Part shown: positions 21,213 to 36,763 of the stretch, piece after piece
Layout of the letters: each line of letters starts with the position of its first letter
Numbering within the stretch: position 1 is the stretch's first letter
Source of the DNA: a virus
Reading direction: 5' to 3' (one strand)
DNA: 64,000 nt
Virus record (IMG/VR): IMGVR_UViG_3300037189_023236
Position numbers and translations under genes: made by a program
The notes under the pieces: generated by a model
Databases searched by the model: none
What the model was told of the DNA's origin: nothing
The model's input: only the letters and a program-made list of their open reading frames with translations

Positions 21213-21285
21213 AGCCGAAGGTCGGACTCGAACCGACGACCTACTGATTACAAATCAGTAGCTCTACCAACTGAGCTACTTCGGC
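21213..21285 (-). tRNA. tRNA-Thr(UGU), no encoded CCA
   Basis: GCCGAAG acceptor stem, TAGCTCAGTTGGTAGAGC D-arm, CTGAT-TTGTAAT-CAG anticodon arm, GGTTCGAGTCC T-arm. Confidence 0.95.
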
Positions 21286-24231: not shown

Positions 24232-25417
24232 GAATATGCTAGATCACACGCAAGACATCAGCGGCCGCGAAACCCATCGGTTATTGTCTTTGTATACGCC
24301 GCCGGATTTTGTTAAATCTGCGTCCGCTGACCGGCTCAACGGCGATCCCGAAAAGCTTGCTAGGCATCTTTACGCCGATCCGAGCAAGAAACTTTATCCA
24401 TGCCATACAGCTCCTGCTACTTGGATGTCTGCATTATGGTTTACCGAAAAACGAGCAGAATTTGACGCCGCGATGGCCTCGACCATCGAAACGCGCATTA
24501 AAACGGCTGCAAACTATTTTGGCATCGCGGGGGCCGTAGAGCAATTAATGGAGAAAGTGGCCCGCGACAACAGCAACGAATTGGCCAAGCTACCCGACAC
24601 GGCATTTGCCATCGTTTGGAAAGACGAAGCCGGCAACACTGAACGCCACTGGCCCATGCGCAATGCGACCGAGGTTAAGTTTGCCTGCGCGCATTTCCGC
24701 AAGTATCGCGACGAGTTCATTTTTGCCGATCGGCATAAAATCGCTAATAAAATTCTCGACAAGGCGCTCGAGTTTGGGGCCGACACATCGGCGGCGGAGG
24801 GCATTTTGGAGTCGACGGCCGGGCGTGGCTTGTGCGCCACAAAAGTCGCGGCCGAGCTTCTCAGGGACCGCGCTGCACGTACGGCTAGGACGCACGCAGC
24901 GCTTAGCGAAGAAATGACCAAGCTTGCCGAGTTAGTAGAAGCAAACCCGGCAGAAACGCAGCACGAAGAGTGCCGGCTAAAGCTGGCCGCCGTAATTGAT
25001 CAATTTGACCGCGAGACGAAGCTCTGCCGGTTGTACGACGATAACGGCCTCTCTCGCGCTGAAGAAGTCCTTTTCGCTATCACCGAGAAGGTTGCCCGCG
25101 ATTTTATGAGTGAAAACGTGGAAACAACCACCGGTAATGTGTACGCCCTGGAAGATATCGAAAAACTGGCTGTTGAAGATATTCGCAGCTGGATGGGCGA
25201 CGACTTTGCGGACGCTGTCTCAACCGGCGGCGTCTACACGGATCGCGACAAGCTGGCGGCAATTGTTCCCACGCTTGATCGTGGAATGGCCGCCACTTTC
25301 GACCGGCTTATGCAAGAAAAGCGCGCCTATCCGATTGTGACAAAGGCGGCCGCGGCGTCGCTAATGCCCGAAGACAGGCTTTATGATTTAGCCGCAGAGT
25401 TTAAGTTTGACGGCTGA
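24230..25417 (+). CDS. Probable head/virion protein rich in K-x-A motifs
   Basis: ORF track; internal repeat K.YPCHT / R.WPMRN; GGAG upstream of ATG 24230 (start uncertain). Confidence 0.6.
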   Translation: MNMLDHTQDISGRETHRLLSLYTPPDFVKSASADRLNGDPEKLARHLYADPSKKLYPCHTAPATWMSALWFTEKRAEFDAAMASTIETRIKTAANYFGIAGAVEQLMEKVARDNSNELAKLPDTAFAIVWKDEAGNTERHWPMRNATEVKFACAHFRKYRDEFIFADRHKIANKILDKALEFGADTSAAEGILESTAGRGLCATKVAAELLRDRAARTARTHAALSEEMTKLAELVEANPAETQHEECRLKLAAVIDQFDRETKLCRLYDDNGLSRAEEVLFAITEKVARDFMSENVETTTGNVYALEDIEKLAVEDIRSWMGDDFADAVSTGGVYTDRDKLAAIVPTLDRGMAATFDRLMQEKRAYPIVTKAAAASLMPEDRLYDLAAEFKFDG

Positions 25418-25614
25418 GTCGCGGCAATTCGCTGTCTTTGTGCGCGCAAGTCAAACTTGATTTTCGGAATTAGTTCCGAGCGCAATACCGTTACGTTTGG
25501 CGGCGCGACAAAACCAAGGCGCACAGAGCCGTTGTCGCGGATCTCAATGACTTTAACCTGAATATCCTCGCCAATTTCGATTGTCTCGCCCTCTCGACGC
25601 GTTAAAACAAGCAC
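25381..25614 (-). CDS. csrA: Carbon storage regulator CsrA/RsmA
   Basis: MLVLTRR.GE.I.IG.DI.V.V..I....VRLG..AP..V.V.R.E. Confidence 0.92.
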   Translation of the reverse strand: MLVLTRREGETIEIGEDIQVKVIEIRDNGSVRLGFVAPPNVTVLRSELIPKIKFDLRAQRQRIAATQPSNLNSAAKS

Positions 25615-27493: not shown

Positions 27494-27973
27494 CTATTGT
27501 TCGCTGTTAAATTTTTTGATGTGCGCCAGCCTTGCCGCATAGAACTGCGCGATCATCGGCGCCACGCCCTCAAAATTTTTCTGGATATCCGGCAGCACGA
27601 CCTCTCGAAACACGCGAATAATCGTAGCCTCTAGCCGGCTTAGCGCTTCTTTCGTGTAGCGGGCGGACGCTGCCTGCATAGCCGCTTCGCGCACTTCTGG
27701 AGACGTGTCAAGCAAAATCTGCAGATACGTCGGGCAGATAAACCGCGCCTCGTGACCAAGTGCGCGCATTGTTTTTAGCGTTTCTTGCGGCGCGCTAAAA
27801 ATTGGCTTTCCAGGATCCGGGTCTTTTTTGTCCAAGCTCTTCGGATCTGGGTGCCGAATATTTTTCAGCAGCCAGCCGTATTCTGCGATATCAGAATTCG
27901 GATCTGACATCGTGTATGCCGCTTTTGGCCGCGTCGGTGCATTCGGGTCGTGGAGTGTGTGTCTCTTTGCCAT
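27494..27973 (-). CDS. Hypothetical protein
   Basis: ORF track; co-directional. Confidence 0.6.
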   Translation of the reverse strand: MAKRHTLHDPNAPTRPKAAYTMSDPNSDIAEYGWLLKNIRHPDPKSLDKKDPDPGKPIFSAPQETLKTMRALGHEARFICPTYLQILLDTSPEVREAAMQAASARYTKEALSRLEATIIRVFREVVLPDIQKNFEGVAPMIAQFYAARLAHIKKFNSEQ

Positions 27974-28021
27974 GCTCGCTAATAGCTAAGGAAAATCGTG
28001 ATAGGTAAGACATAACGCTGG

Positions 28022-28072
28022 TGTACCAAGACTTTGCAACCTGTAAAAACAATGTTGCAAAGTCTTGGTACA
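28022..28072. repeat. Perfect 19-bp inverted repeat with 13-nt spacer
   Basis: TGTACCAAGACTTTGCAAC / GTTGCAAAGTCTTGGTACA. Confidence 0.9.
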
Positions 28073-28090
28073 AACCAGACTTGACTGCAT

Positions 28091-28491
28091 GAACTTCAGA
28101 TGGCGATACCCGCGGAGAAAGTGCTACCACTTTCCTTGACCCTGTGATCCGCTTATTAGGCTACGCATACCATTCGGCGCAACTTGTTAACGCTGATCAG
28201 GCGTTAACTTATTGGGCTAGTGATATGCCGCAGGATTTTCACCTGCACCCCCCGCTCTCCTAAGTCGTGGTTAGTCGAGGATAGACCATTGGCGTCTGTG
28301 TACCCTAGCACTAAGCGTGGCCGGGCGCGTGGTCGCTACTCCACACACAGACTCAAGTGCCTTAGCACCTACCCTCACAGAATTCAACCACCAAGGTTGC
28401 TCCCGACCCCTTGCGGAATCGGCCTCAGTGTGCGTGCACCTAGAGATAGGGTCATCTCACACGCTTCTGCGGATACCGCCATCTGAAGTTC
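28091..28491 (-). ncRNA. Candidate large structured non-coding RNA (~400 nt), family not recognised
   Basis: 23-bp closing stem with two G-U pairs only on the minus strand; GCAA tetraloop, T-loop hairpin and at least six further helices; no credible ORF. Confidence 0.7.
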
Positions 28492-28561
28492 AACTCAAAA
28501 GTCGCTGACGACAATCGATAGGAACAACTAATATGCCAGCATTTTGGCAAAAATTTAGCAG

Positions 28562-28864
28562 TCAGAAAGTGACCTGGCTAATCTGCCCAGTCGCCGACGC
28601 CTGTACGATTGTGATCGACTTTGTGTCGAGTAGTCGTTTGAGTTCTTCTTTTTTTTCTGCGCTCAGTGACACTAGGCAGTTTTTAATGTTGGCCAGCGCG
28701 GTACGTTGCGCATCAGCACGCCGGCGGGCGCACGCGCCGCAGCCTGTTTTCGCTGGAGCTATTGCTGTTTTCTGATTGAACAGGCACGGAATCGCCGCCG
28801 TAAATTTTTCGTCGTTTACCATGGCTGCGATCGTACTGTCTTCAATTACAACTATTTCACGCAT
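28562..28864 (-). CDS. Hypothetical protein with GCGAC motif
   Basis: ORF track; end of the structural operon. Confidence 0.7.
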   Translation of the reverse strand: MREIVVIEDSTIAAMVNDEKFTAAIPCLFNQKTAIAPAKTGCGACARRRADAQRTALANIKNCLVSLSAEKKEELKRLLDTKSITIVQASATGQISQVTF

Positions 28865-32452: not shown

Positions 32453-35400
32453 TTAAGGTAGTGTAATTACAGGGAGCGCGGCTGTGTTTGGGCCGCATAA
32501 ATCGCGAAAACCGACGCTATTTGAATTACTCGGTGTAATAGCGGTAACTAGATCTAGCGTCGTGATTGTATTGGTGGTTATGTCGTGCGTATACCATTGA
32601 CCCGCGATTATGTTGTGCAGATACACAAGGTTGTACGCTGCGTTAAACGATACTTGCATGCCGGCCATACCGCTTTTTAACAACGTAAAAGACGCGTTTG
32701 GCGTATTCACGTTTAATGTGTACATGTACCCGGTGTTTGTACTGGCGTATAGTAGGCCAGTGTTTGGGTTGATAGCAAAGTCGCCAAATCGGTTGTCGAT
32801 ACTGGTTTGCACATTTGTTTGAATTATTTGCGGCTGCCCGGCAGTTACGCTTGCGCCGTAGGTCAGCGGTATTTTTATCAGCTCACGCGAGTTTCTTACG
32901 CCAGTGTAACTAGTGGCTTTCGGGTAAAAAAACCACACAGCGTTATTGTAATATGCCGCGCCAGCCGGTACTTCTGTTAAGTCAATGACGGCGGCGTTTA
33001 TCGTTATTTTTGTGAACGTATTGGCTGGGATATTCCATAAATACATATCGCCGGGGACAGCGCCGTCAAATACGAATAAATGCTGGCGCGCTGGGTCAAA
33101 AGCCAATGCGTTTGGCGACGTCGTTAGCATTGTTTTACGGACGGGCGAGCTCGTTTTTGCCGCTGGATTTATCTGCCAAATTACGCCGTTGTTGTCGACG
33201 CCGTATACGTACGTATTGACTGAAAGCTCTTCGGCCACGCGAAAACCTAAAAATCGCGTAGAGTGCGTTGCGGCTCTGTATGTTGGCGGGCTGGCTGCGT
33301 TAAACGTCTCGCCAAGTGCCGTAAAACCTCCCGACATTATCGGCACCTGCCCGTCGACAATAGTATCTGTCCACTCAGCTAAATTGCCTACCATGTCTAA
33401 TCCGCCATAGTACGATTGCGATCCGGCGCCAAACGTGCCGACGGGTGTTGAGTCGCCGATACCGCCTTCAATATTTGCGGTGTTTGTTTGCGCAGTTGGA
33501 CTTGTGGCTACAGTCGGTTTTGTATCGGTGCCGGTGCCCCACGTGTAATAGCCGCCTATGCCGTTATTTAATAGCGGACTGTAGAATGCGGCTTTGTACC
33601 ACTCGTCACGGCTGGGCAGAAACGCTTTTGCCCCTATATTTCGCGGCACCGGGGTTGTCGTTGTTTTTGTCAGAGTATAAGCGCCGTATTCCGTGCTCGC
33701 CGGGTCGTTTGTCATGCCGTTATGCAACCAGTTAGCAAAACGCGCTGCCGACGGCCACGAGACATGGCACACAGGGCGCGATGCAAGCAACGGATCGCTT
33801 ATGTACGAATAATTGCCAACCGTACCGAGTTGCGTGATACCAACAACGCCTTGCGCTAGCGTGTAGATGTTGTTGTCATTTACCCGACCAACCGCATTTA
33901 AAAATTCTACGTACTGCGCTGTAGATATTTCAGTTGCAGATATTTTGTAGCCATACGCAACCGAACCTACCCCGACGTTGTTTGTTTTTGTCGACGGTGG
34001 GTTGCTCAGGTCATACACATTCTTAAACGTTATTGCGTTTTGCAGTGGTTTCGCTATCGGAGTTGGCGTGGGTGTCGGTGTAATTGTTGGCGTGGGTGTA
34101 ATTGTCGGCGTCGGAGTAGGCGTCGGCGTTGCGTTAACGTTCCAAATCAACGCCGCTGTGCCGTGATCCGCCGATATTTGCATGACGTTGTTAAGCAGCA
34201 ATTTACTAGTATTCGGAATTTGCGGTGTTGTCGTATTACGGCCTAGATCGGCGCGATCGCAACCCCACGTAAATACGCCGTCGCGCTCGGCCGCAACACC
34301 GACGACAAAGCCGCTGCCTATTTTGATGTCCGCCCATAAATTTGTGTTTAGCTGTGTCAATACTGGCAGAACTAGTGCGGCACTACTTGTTTGAAATGTC
34401 GTGTAACCAAAAATATTGCACTCGGTGTTCAAACCACAACCCCAAAGTGTTCCATTTCGTTTTATTGCTAGTGTAGTAACCGGCCCGACGCTGACCGTTG
34501 CCCAATCACTATCAGGGCTTAACTGCCTAATATCTCCAACGGAGGTAGCGCGACCGGGAGTGAACACGCCGAGTTGTCTGTACGTATTTTGGCCCCAGCC
34601 CCACAGCGTTCCGTCAGATCTAATAGCTACTACATGCGGGCCGGCGGCTATTTTGGTGTACGTATGCGTACCGATGCGCGCGGGATCGCTGTAAAGAGCG
34701 CCGCCGTCAAGCGAACTTACTCCCCAGTGCCACAGTGAGCCGTCTGTTTTAAGCGCAAACACCTCAGCGTCGGCGCAAACAATTTCGGCCCAGTCTGTAG
34801 CTTCGCTGATTTTTGTAGGTACAAAAACTGATTGATTTTCGGCAATACCGCTTCCGGCTGTTAGTTGCCAATTACGATTTGAGCCCCAGCCCCAAAGCGT
34901 ACCATTCTGTTTTATGGCGAAAGAGCACGTATATCCGGCAGCTACTGCTGCCCAATCGTTGTTTGCGCCCACGCTACTCGGTATTTCAACATTTTCACCT
35001 CGGCCGTATCGTGTAAATAACAGATCGCTACCCAAACCGAGCTGACCGTCCGGCCCGCTACCAAATACAAAAATTGTGCCGTTAGCGCGTAATCCAATTG
35101 TGTGATGATAATTAGCGCTAATTTTTGCCAAATTTAAACTGAATGCCGCGTCGGGTAGGTTCGGCATGTATACAACAGGTATAACTCCGGAAGAAATATC
35201 ACGATAACCTAATGCGTTATTTGTATTTCGACCCCAGACGCGTGCCTGTAAACCGGGTGGTGGTGTGGGTGTAGGTGTCGGCGTCGGCGTATTAGTCGGC
35301 GTTGGTGTAGGTGTGGGTGTTCTTGTCGCGGTTGGTGTCGGTGTGGAGGTTCTAGTCGGTGTAGGTGTGGGTGTAGGCGTAGGTGGTACAGGGGTGTTAG

Positions 35401-36763
35401 TCGGCGTGGGCGTCGGTGTAGGTGTGGGCGTTCTAGTCGGTGTTGGAGTAGGCGTTGGCGTAGGCGGAATAGGCGTCGGAGTTGGCGTCCTAGTTGGCGT
35501 AGGTGTGGGCGTTGGTGTAGGCGGTACGGGCGTCGGAGTGGGCGTCCTAGTTGGTGTCGGTGTGGGGGTTCTAGTCGGTGTTGGAGTGGGCGTGGGTGTT
35601 CTTGTCGGTGTAGGTGTGGGCGTAGGCGTCGGTGTAAGCCCGCTAGCGAAAATACCCAAAGAGAAATCAGTAGAGTGACTAATGCTGACGGCTAAGCACG
35701 TATTTGTGCCAACCATTGCCGGCACTGTAATCGTGGAGCCTGCGAAAGAGCCGAGGCCGAGCTGGCCGAAGGCATTATTGCCCCACATAAATAACCGACC
35801 GTCTGACCGAATAGCTGCGGAAGAATAACGACCAGCGGCTACTCTAGTAAAAACAGTCGGCGAACCAATTGTGACAGGTACAGCAACTTGAGTTGGCGTA
35901 GAGACGTCAAAGGATGTATAACCCAAACCCAATTCGCCGGAAGTGTTTGAACCCCACGCAAATAACACACCGTCTTGTCTAACGGCTATGGCGTAAGTAT
36001 TTCCTTTGACTGACACATCTGCGCAAAAAAGTAATGGACCAACCGGCGACGGAAAATAATTCGGCGCGGTGGCCGTGCTTCTACCAAGCGGAACGCGGTT
36101 GTTGGCGCCCCACGTATACAATTGCCCGTTTTGATCTATAGCCGCTACGGTTGCCTCCGTGCCTGTACTGCACGACACGGCCACAAATCTGTTTAAGCCA
36201 ACAATAGAATTTTGTCCGGCTACTTGAACTGGGTAAACCGCGTAATTGTCTTGGCTTGACGCGAATCCAAGGTTGCCCGTCCCCCATCCGAACAACCTAC
36301 CGTCAGCGCGAATTGCAAATGTGTTTTGATATCCGCAAGACACTGCAATCCAGTTGTCATTGCCTATTTGTATAGGTGTTAATCGCGAAGTGAGCGTACC
36401 GTCGCCGAGCTGTCCGAACGAGTTGGCACCCCACGTGAATAACTTACCGTCGCTGCGAATTGCAGCCATGTGCATATAACCAGCGTCAACAGCGCGCCAG
36501 TTGTCGTTGCCTAATTGTCTAGGTGTTCTTTCAACCCCCGAGGCATCGCTGAACCCTAAAAGATTGTTGCCGGCATTGCCCCATGTAAATAGTTTGCCAG
36601 TGCTGCTTATACCTGCGCCGACCCAAGACCCGGCAGAAATCGCGGACCACGTAGTACCAATTACTTGCGCCGGCGTCGTGCGCGAACCGCCATCGGCGTG
36701 CCCGAGCTGGTACAGCGTATTGGCGCCCCAGGAGTATAAAAAGCCTGGCGTGGTTGTAATCAT
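32453..36763 (-). CDS. Multidomain receptor-binding/fibre protein: RCC1 propeller - PT - RCC1 propeller - PT - FGE/SUMF1 C-type-lectin domain - propeller
   Basis: Repeated I.SDG.LF.WG.N..GQLG; [42 protein letters not shown]. Confidence 0.8.

Follow-up and report, generated by a model that had tools for sequence, protein, structure and literature searches.

The question raised by the DNA considered here, a stretch of 64,000 nucleotides (nt) from IMG/VR virus record IMGVR_UViG_3300037189_023236 (called the window below), is what occupies its longest gap between genes. Positions 27974-28561 (588 nt) form the longest part of the window without an open reading frame (ORF) of at least 100 amino acids (aa), and the two other gaps of more than 250 nt contain ORFs of 62-96 aa. 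An initial annotation, which was made from the sequence alone, had singled out this gap as the only large one and had proposed that it encodes a new or very divergent large structured non-coding RNA (ncRNA) on the minus strand. We conclude, with a probability of about 0.8, that positions 28091-28491 of the minus strand are the gene for a 401-nt structured ncRNA, and that this RNA is a divergent member (subtype B1) of an uncatalogued accessory family of 350-410 nt present in some uncultured ~200-kb phages. The central proposal of the annotation is upheld by covariation among homologues, an excess of G-U pairs, better folding of the sense strand and no match in Rfam 15. The assignment of the element itself uses its minimum free energy (MFE) fold, the fold of the family, a covariance model of one domain (P8-P10) and the homologues.

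Fold and covariation

The two ends of the element pair with each other. On the minus strand, positions 28469-28491 (the 5' strand of the closing helix, P1) and 28091-28113 (its 3' strand) form 23 bp, 21 of them Watson-Crick and two G-U. The 401-nt minus-strand RNA has an MFE of -182 kcal/mol, as compared with -137.8 +/- 6.4 kcal/mol for 100 dinucleotide shuffles (z -7.0). The annotated closing helix and this one agree in full, and the comparison with shuffled sequences, which had been suggested as a check, places the RNA well under the shuffles.

Thirteen distinct homologues were found in uncultured ~200-kb phages; they belong to three subtypes (A, B1 and B2) and are 51-74% identical to the window copy. 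An alignment of 13 sequences from the three subtypes (A2) was folded with RNAalifold, which gave 95 consensus pairs, and 54 of the 95 have at least one compensatory double change. In this consensus 97.6% of the pair cells are paired, versus 33-46% once the 3' partners have been displaced by 1-3 columns, and these slid controls have only 4-12 pairs changed on both sides versus the 54 observed. In 500 column shuffles the percentage paired, the double-change counts and the covariation score, which together make up four of the five measures, never came up to the values observed; for the fifth, further pair types, 11 of the 500 reach the observed value. P1 is ~22-26 bp long in all 13 members, with compensatory changes in 22 of its 25 pairs and 99.1% of its cells paired. 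Covariation among homologues, the second check that had been suggested, is thus present in more than half of the consensus pairs.

The strand can also be assigned. The consensus pairs include 130 G-U pairs versus eight A-C, each of the 13 members folds 18-40 kcal/mol more stably as the sense strand than as the antisense strand, and no open frame conserved across the members was found. These three results imply that selection acts on the minus-strand RNA. The annotation had reached the same strand from two G-U pairs in the closing helix, which would be A-C mismatches on the opposite strand, and its argument holds for the family.

A different explanation would be that the structure acts as DNA, for example as an origin, a packaging site or a recombination site. 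The inverted repeats do fold on both strands, and the plus strand of the element reaches -157.4 kcal/mol (z -6.2). Against this stand the preference for G-U over A-C in the conserved pairs, the markedly better folding of the sense strand in every member and the promoter and terminator that frame the RNA in subtype A (see below). We consider a role at the DNA level extremely improbable.

Comparison with known RNA families

Is the RNA one that has already been described? When the whole window was searched against Rfam 15 at the gathering score, no family matched the element, and a search of positions 27900-28700 at E<=10 also gave no match to the element, only noise on neighbouring hairpins. Five members that cover all of the subtypes (L127, L130, L145, L146 and L158; such L and G numbers are our own handles) had no match at E<=5. 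The RNA has no match in any subtype, and so the novelty claimed for it stands.

Several specific candidates were tried and rejected. Membership in GOLLD, ROOL, OLE, raiA or HEARO is contradicted by the lack of a covariance-model match in the window and in the five members. RNase P, tmRNA, group I/II introns and the small self-cleaving ribozymes likewise have no Rfam model that matches, as far as covariance models see. ARAGORN found no tmRNA in the window, and its sole detection is a tRNA-Thr at 21213-21285, 7 kb from the element.

No DNA similar to the element was found in GenBank phages, and no description of the RNA family was found in the literature. A bulk survey of viral structured-RNA candidates contains more than 10,000 unnamed ones (PMC10690425), and the family could sit unnamed among these candidates, with which a sequence comparison was not possible. 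Membership in that candidate set aside, the RNA family is a new class relative to public knowledge.

Two known systems are worth comparing with the family. ROOL and GOLLD are large ornate RNAs, often from phages or prophages, which have been studied by cryo-electron microscopy and which make kissing contacts in their assemblies (PMC12286853). Like them, the window RNA is a large multi-junction phage ncRNA that has many conserved unpaired nucleotides and no associated protein or known function, and it has a self-complementary hairpin loop that could mediate RNA-RNA contacts (predicted oligomerisation). However, the window family is 350-410 nt long versus ~580 and 800 nt, it is clamped by a terminal helix of 22-26 bp, it is not located beside tRNA genes, it is present in only one group of ~200-kb phages and, as noted above, it matches neither covariance model. 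RNase P RNA resembles the window RNA in its size, in ends that lie in a terminal helix, in AGGAA and ACAAA-like strands beside long-range helices and in GAGCA and GGUGAAAG-like boxes. The differences are that no RNase P model matches at E<=10, that the P4 signature with a bulged U (AGGAAAGUCC / ACAGAA..GGCU) is absent and that the window RNA is accessory, whereas RNase P is essential.

Architecture of the RNA

The family architecture consists of the long closing helix P1 around two multi-helix junctions, with invariant unpaired boxes between covarying helices. Junction 1 is made of P1, P2, P3, P4 and P11; junction 2, which lies past the stacked long-range helices P4-P6, is made of P7 to P10. 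All of the features below are on the minus strand.

P2 (28432-28464; GCGUGU/GCACGC) has two covarying pairs and 100% pairing and surrounds a 16-nt box, CCUAUCUCUAGGUGCA (28450-28435), which is identical in 12 of the 13 members and has three differing positions in L158. P3 and the hairpin P3a (28389-28430) carry a conserved GAGCAA bulge (28402-28397), and their helices are rebuilt between relatives. For example, P3 is CACUGAGG/CCUUGGUG in the window, CAAUAGG/CCUAUUG in L127 and CAGCAAG/CUUGCUG in L130, and the sequence of P3a is different in each of the three, with GAGC invariant. The consensus is P3 with or without P3a, and the conserved GAGCA is either a bulge or a loop.

The 5' strands of the long-range helices P4 (CUGUGA), P5 (UGCU) and P6 (AGGC) are at 28359-28380 and pair with 28142-28161. 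The alignment and the constrained fold place the 3' strands of P6, P5 and P4 (GCCUAAUAAGCGGAUCACAG) in the latter region, where they overlap the second UAGCCUAAUAAG box (28163-28152). These helices covary, as seen in UGCAG/CUGCA (A and B2), in CCGUU/AACGG and in the exchange of AGGC/GCCU, GAGC/GCUC and AAGC/GCUU.

P7 (28294-28352; GUCUGUGU/ACACAGAC) has a variable tip with conserved GUAGCG and GUGCUAGGG, and it too is rebuilt in relatives (GGAAUGCC/GGCAUUCC in L127, GUGUAU/AUACAC in L130 and GGAAUAGC/GCUAUUCC in L146). P8 (28249-28281; UCCUCG/CGGGGG) includes a conserved CGACUA...AGGRGAGCG internal region, and four of its pairs covary, with 97% pairing. The P9 hairpin, GCAGG-UGAAAAU-CCUGC (28230-28246), has three covarying pairs and 100% pairing. 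P10 (GCAUAUCA/UGGUAUGC) encloses P10b (GUUAACGC/GCGUUAAC) at 28165-28228, and five of five and seven of eight pairs covary in the two helices, respectively. P11 (28116-28135), which is a helix in the family alignment, is the hairpin GGAAAGUG-GUAG-CACUUUCU; its loop is GUAG in the window and GUGA or GCGA in other members.

The box UAGCCYAAUAAG occurs twice in the window copy, at 28219-28208 and 28163-28152, as the annotation had stated. The box provides the 3' strands of P5 and P6, it is doubled in subtype B1 and only the second copy is present family-wide. The family alignment places the first copy (UAGCCCAAUAAG) in a B1-specific insert in P10 (within 28165-28228), where it could serve as an alternative pairing partner, i.e., as a switch.

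The helices listed above differ in part from those first annotated in the window. All of the annotated hairpins can form in the window sequence and most are within its MFE fold, but two of them are absent at the family level. These are AGGUGC-UAAG-GCACUU, the bases of which are paired in the family with the 3' box GCCUAAUAAGCG instead, and GAGGGUAG/CUAUCCUC, where the family helix is UCCUCG/CGGGGG. The tertiary features that had been read from the window copy are likewise not kept in all of the homologues. The partners of a long-range pseudoknot, UGACCCU/AGGGUCA, are not complementary in L158, L127 and L130. The UGAAAAU loop of P9 had been read as a T-loop; subtypes A and B1 retain loops of the UGAAA type, and B2 has UUAACGC or CUAACGA in their place. 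In P3a, the GCAA of the window, which had been taken as a GNRA loop, is replaced by UUCG or CAACG in B2, and subtype A lacks this hairpin altogether.

When all of the RNAalifold column pairs were forced onto the window copy, the fold was poor (-140.6 kcal/mol), as the subtypes are misaligned with one another at P7 and P10, and therefore only the well-supported family helices were enforced. With these helices the window copy folds to -176.3 kcal/mol, which is 5.7 above the MFE.

Homologues and subtypes

Where else does the RNA occur? The relatives were first located through the proteins that flank the gap. The gene downstream of the RNA (27494-27973, minus strand) encodes 159 aa and was used for finding syntenic loci, and the gene upstream (28562-28864, minus strand) encodes 100 aa. 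The same ~590-nt gap is present in L117-L126, L127/L128 and L130, in which the 159-aa protein is 100%, 81% and 77% identical, respectively, and the gap of these relatives contains an alignable element with helices rebuilt from different sequences. In a fourth lineage, L141, the 3' third of the element is covered. A comparison of the element with the first 26 syntenic loci by blastn and nhmmer gave no match; in those phages the homologues sit at another genomic place. More distant relatives with complete IMG/VR genomes (G003, G005, G006, G008, G011, G012 and G013), as well as several fragments, have the family at such another place.

Subtype B1 consists of the window RNA and the G008 RNA, which are ~400-410 nt long and 74% identical to each other. 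Subtype B2 consists of L127 and L130 (~380 nt; 57-58% identical to the window), and subtype A is ~350 nt long and 51-53% identical to the window. The core shared in alignment A2, all of which is present in the window, includes the box CCUAUCUCUAGGUGCA, GAGCA, the long-range helices P4-P6 and the P8-P10 domain. A covariance model (R1) that describes only the 147 positions of the P8-P10 domain finds this sole copy in the window, with a score of 99 bits; the window copy was among the sequences from which the model was built. R1 has exactly one match in each of five other complete genomes, and the RNA is thus single-copy in these as it is in the window. Two near-complete genomes, G002 and G007, lack the RNA, and G004 has an 11-bit chance match inside coding sequence.

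Some candidates proved not to be homologues. L144, which has a 490-nt gap, and L161, which has an 11-bit model match, are coding sequence, and L131 (from one metagenome scan) and L157 are chance matches. Exact-pattern scans with a 22-mer and with a three-box pattern taken from the first three homologues gave no match.

One 5-kb sequence, L160 (RGVZ01000266.1, 'MAG: bacterium isolate WB9_2_064'), contains a subtype A RNA and the phage promoter motif described in the next section. It is most likely DNA of the same type of phage that was mis-binned into a bacterial metagenome-assembled genome.

Genomic setting and cassette exchange

The RNA of the window lies between two conserved elements. About 40 nt upstream of P1 is a bipartite promoter-like motif, GCTAAAT-N15-GGCATAT (28531-28559, minus strand), which has no other exact copy in the window. 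Relatives retain the motif at this slot whether or not they have the RNA, and it is probably a phage-specific promoter. It is present with the same rigid spacing in L127, L130, L132, L136, L140 and L001, and it occurs downstream of the RNA terminator in L145, L146 and L148. Between the RNA and the 159-aa gene is a long conserved hairpin (28014-28082, minus strand; -40.7 kcal/mol, z -8.2). It begins GUUUGUACC, has ~27 pairs, 22 of them unbroken, and shows compensatory changes in both filled and empty sites. No U tract follows the hairpin, and for this reason it may be a processing or regulatory site.

The empty sites are found in relatives in which the 159-aa protein is 68-72% identical; these have the promoter motif, ~54 nt, the hairpin and the gene, and no RNA. 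A relative with a 76% identical 159-aa protein has the same short gap, judged by gene coordinates only. Other relatives have a small ORF or a GC-rich element at this position. Therefore, this is a variable slot, the cargo of which across the relatives is the RNA, a 125-aa ORF, a GC-rich element or nothing. The GC-rich element is a conserved three-way junction of ~110 nt (CCGCACCUGCC..., CCGCCGCCCUGCG...CGCGGGGCGGCGG) that occupies the slot of the RNA in L005, L006, L009, L011, L013, L021 and L024, and it lies ~40-150 nt past the stop of the homologue of the 100-aa gene.

Subtype A has a different arrangement. P1 is preceded at 5 nt by the end of a TTGACA-16-TAGAAT promoter, and behind a short two-hairpin tail there is a strong 12-bp terminator with T8. 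By these signals, the subtype A RNA is an independent gene with its own predicted sigma70-like promoter and terminator at an unrelated genomic place.

This difference bears on the possibility that the RNA is a cis-acting leader, such as a riboswitch-like sensor, an attenuator or a translational operator, for the 159-aa gene and those that follow it. The RNA of the window, L127 and L130 is in fact located in the leader, downstream of the promoter motif and ahead of the unit's first gene, with the conserved hairpin after it. However, the subtype A RNA stands alone elsewhere with its own promoter and terminator, and the relatives without the RNA have the same genes behind the same promoter motif and hairpin. 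In addition, known leaders do not resemble an RNA of 350-410 nt that is clamped by 22-26 bp, and none of the riboswitch families matches it. A leader function seems quite improbable to us.

The flanking genes of the window and L127 are 71-79% identical and the downstream hairpin region is 88% identical, but the RNA is only 57% identical. The L127 and L130 RNAs, by comparison, are 76% identical, which agrees with their flanks. G008 is a distant phage in which the RNA is 74% identical to the window RNA, the neighbourhood of the RNA shares nothing else with the window and the 201-aa homologue is 42% identical. An RNA that is 74% like that of distant G008 but only 57% like that of nearby L127 implies that the cassette has been exchanged. 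The simplest reading of these identities is that the P1-bounded RNA cassette in the window lineage was replaced by an allele from a G008-like phage. The RNA gene is a movable, single-copy accessory cassette, and in most carriers it is an independent unit elsewhere in the genome.

Does the element move by itself? It could be a transposon that resembles a miniature inverted-repeat transposable element (MITE), with the 23 bp of P1 as terminal inverted repeats, or it could be a self-inserting, intron-like mobile ribozyme. Such an element would account for the presence/absence polymorphism, the sharp borders at the ends of P1, the different genomic places in different phages and the exchange of alleles; ordinary phage mosaicism at a variable slot explains the movement equally well. 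The annotation had named multiple copies with target-site duplications as the sign of a MITE, but each genome has one copy, and none of the three filled sites (the window, L127 and L130) shows a target-site duplication. Nor was a conserved terminal repeat found that would support self-transposition. The supposed inverted repeats are wholly different in sequence between members and yet remain paired, which fits an RNA structure and not a transposase site. A 15-mer from the helix arm occurs in the window only at its two arm sites, and among the loci returned from IMG/VR it gave single chance matches, one per locus, and never an inverted pair. Finally, no group I/II intron, HEARO or other ribozyme model matches, and the element is in non-coding sequence, where splicing is unneeded. 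Self-mobility is improbable, although we rate it a shade above the leader function.

Neighbouring genes

The ORFs that flank the RNA were scanned for protein families. The only solid match is for a 1436-aa RCC1/FGE-sulfatase protein; an 876-aa ORF is weakly primase-like, and the remaining ORFs have no match or only weak or function-unknown matches. The 1436-aa protein (32453-36763, minus strand) has an RCC1-repeat propeller at its N terminus (E 5e-106) together with an FGE-sulfatase (C-type-lectin-like) domain, the fold of which is common in variable receptor-binding proteins. Neither a reverse transcriptase nor a repeat was seen near its gene. For the RNA, a retron or a diversity-generating retroelement was considered and rejected, as none of ten neighbouring ORFs has a reverse transcriptase domain and the window has no second copy or partial repeat of the RNA. 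A reading as a Ro/Y-RNA-like system was also rejected, with no TROVE protein in five genomes.

The window encodes a CsrA homologue (25381-25614, minus strand; Pfam CsrA, E 1e-19), and all 10 related ~200-kb phage genomes tested encode one; therefore, CsrA is a core gene of this phage group. With the CsrA gene 2.5 kb downstream on the same strand and a few GGA motifs in the RNA, one could imagine that the RNA is a decoy, or sponge, for the phage CsrA, like CsrB/RsmZ. However, the 10 genomes with CsrA include ones without the RNA, the RNA has only ~4 GGA triplets, mostly not conserved or outside hairpin loops, and no CsrB/Rsm family matches. We view a CsrA sponge as highly improbable.

A presence/absence comparison of four genomes with the RNA and three without it gave 12-17 carrier-specific ORFs per genome, many within ~10 kb of the RNA, a signal that is confounded by relatedness. 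A block of three genes (~600 aa, ~236 aa and ~360 aa, the last one Ntn-hydrolase-like, NAAA-beta) lies 5-10 kb from the distal RNA locus. In G003 it is at 101456-105335 (L199:1456-5335), and it is syntenic in G008, G011 and G012. The block is present in all four of the RNA-bearing genomes examined and in none of the three genomes without the RNA.

Possible mode of action

Transcription of the window RNA would be driven by the promoter motif, and the RNA would make up the first ~430 nt of the operon transcript. We lean towards the view that it then acts in trans as a discrete and stable molecule, the conserved core of which would bind a conserved partner or other copies of the RNA. The invariant unpaired boxes of the compact core would make the contacts to a conserved partner.

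How might the RNA be separated from the mRNA? RNase III processes RNAs that are flanked by a long terminal duplex, such as bacterial rRNA precursors and the sites in phage T7 early mRNA. The flanks of the window RNA are similar in that the 5' and 3' ends form a perfect duplex of at least two helical turns whatever the sequence, and a second long hairpin is located before the next gene. We favour release or insulation by an RNase because P1 is near-perfect in every member regardless of sequence, at ~2 helical turns or more, and is followed by that hairpin. In this model a double-strand-specific RNase of the host (RNase III type) would cut or protect the two structures. This step is tentative, and we would place its odds somewhat below even because the phages tested encode no RNase III and the ends of the RNA are only inferred.

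All members have a self-complementary 7-nt loop in P10b; it is CUGAUCA in B1 (28200-28194) and CCGUACA in A and B2. By analogy with the kissing loops of ROOL, GOLLD and OLE (PMC12286853), and on the basis of this one evolutionary switch, the loop could be a kissing contact between copies of the RNA. A larger extension of this idea is that the RNA functions as an assembly made of RNA only. The P10b kissing loops (UGAUCA in B1, GUAC in A/B2) would then produce a dimer or a larger particle used in infection, and an arms race with the host would lie behind the frequent swapping of alleles. Another version is that the invariant junction core might be a new ribozyme. We think that an assembly or catalyst of this kind is unlikely, though less so than a leader or a self-mobile element.

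Some of the results weigh against a discrete RNA gene in the window. Alignment A2 holds only 13 sequences, and its P3 and P7 regions are poorly aligned between the subtypes. No sigma70-like promoter or terminator was found flanking the window copy, which could be a mere passenger in a leader, and its transcription, ends and processing are inferred. The neighbouring genes have no informative families that would point to a partner protein. The carrier-specific ORFs likewise have no informative Pfam/PHROG family except for the one Ntn-hydrolase-like protein, and none of these ORFs is in the window. Finally, a phage-encoded RNase III was found in none of five genomes.

Conclusions

As a mobile part of the genome, the structured RNA gene can be compared with phage morons and other swappable cassettes, e.g., PeSL of the T4-like phages. 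They have in common a variable slot behind a repeated promoter motif, a patchy presence and the exchange of alleles. The difference is that the cargo here is a structured RNA and not a small protein gene. That the gene behaves as an accessory cassette open to exchange points to a part in conflict between phage and host, or between phages, and not in housekeeping.

The window copy adds two things to what the family shows. An RNA of this family can sit in an mRNA leader without its own promoter and terminator, and alleles have been swapped between distant phages with the borders at the closing helix.

To our knowledge, large and intricately folded ncRNAs are rare, and nearly every class that is understood (the ribosome, RNase P, introns, tmRNA and the ROOL/GOLLD cages) brought new biochemistry. 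The family described here has clear covariation support, a compact two-junction core and invariant unpaired boxes, and it is present in one group of giant phages only. Its size of 350-400 nt makes it tractable for solving its structure and for testing how it is processed, whether it oligomerises and which partners it binds.

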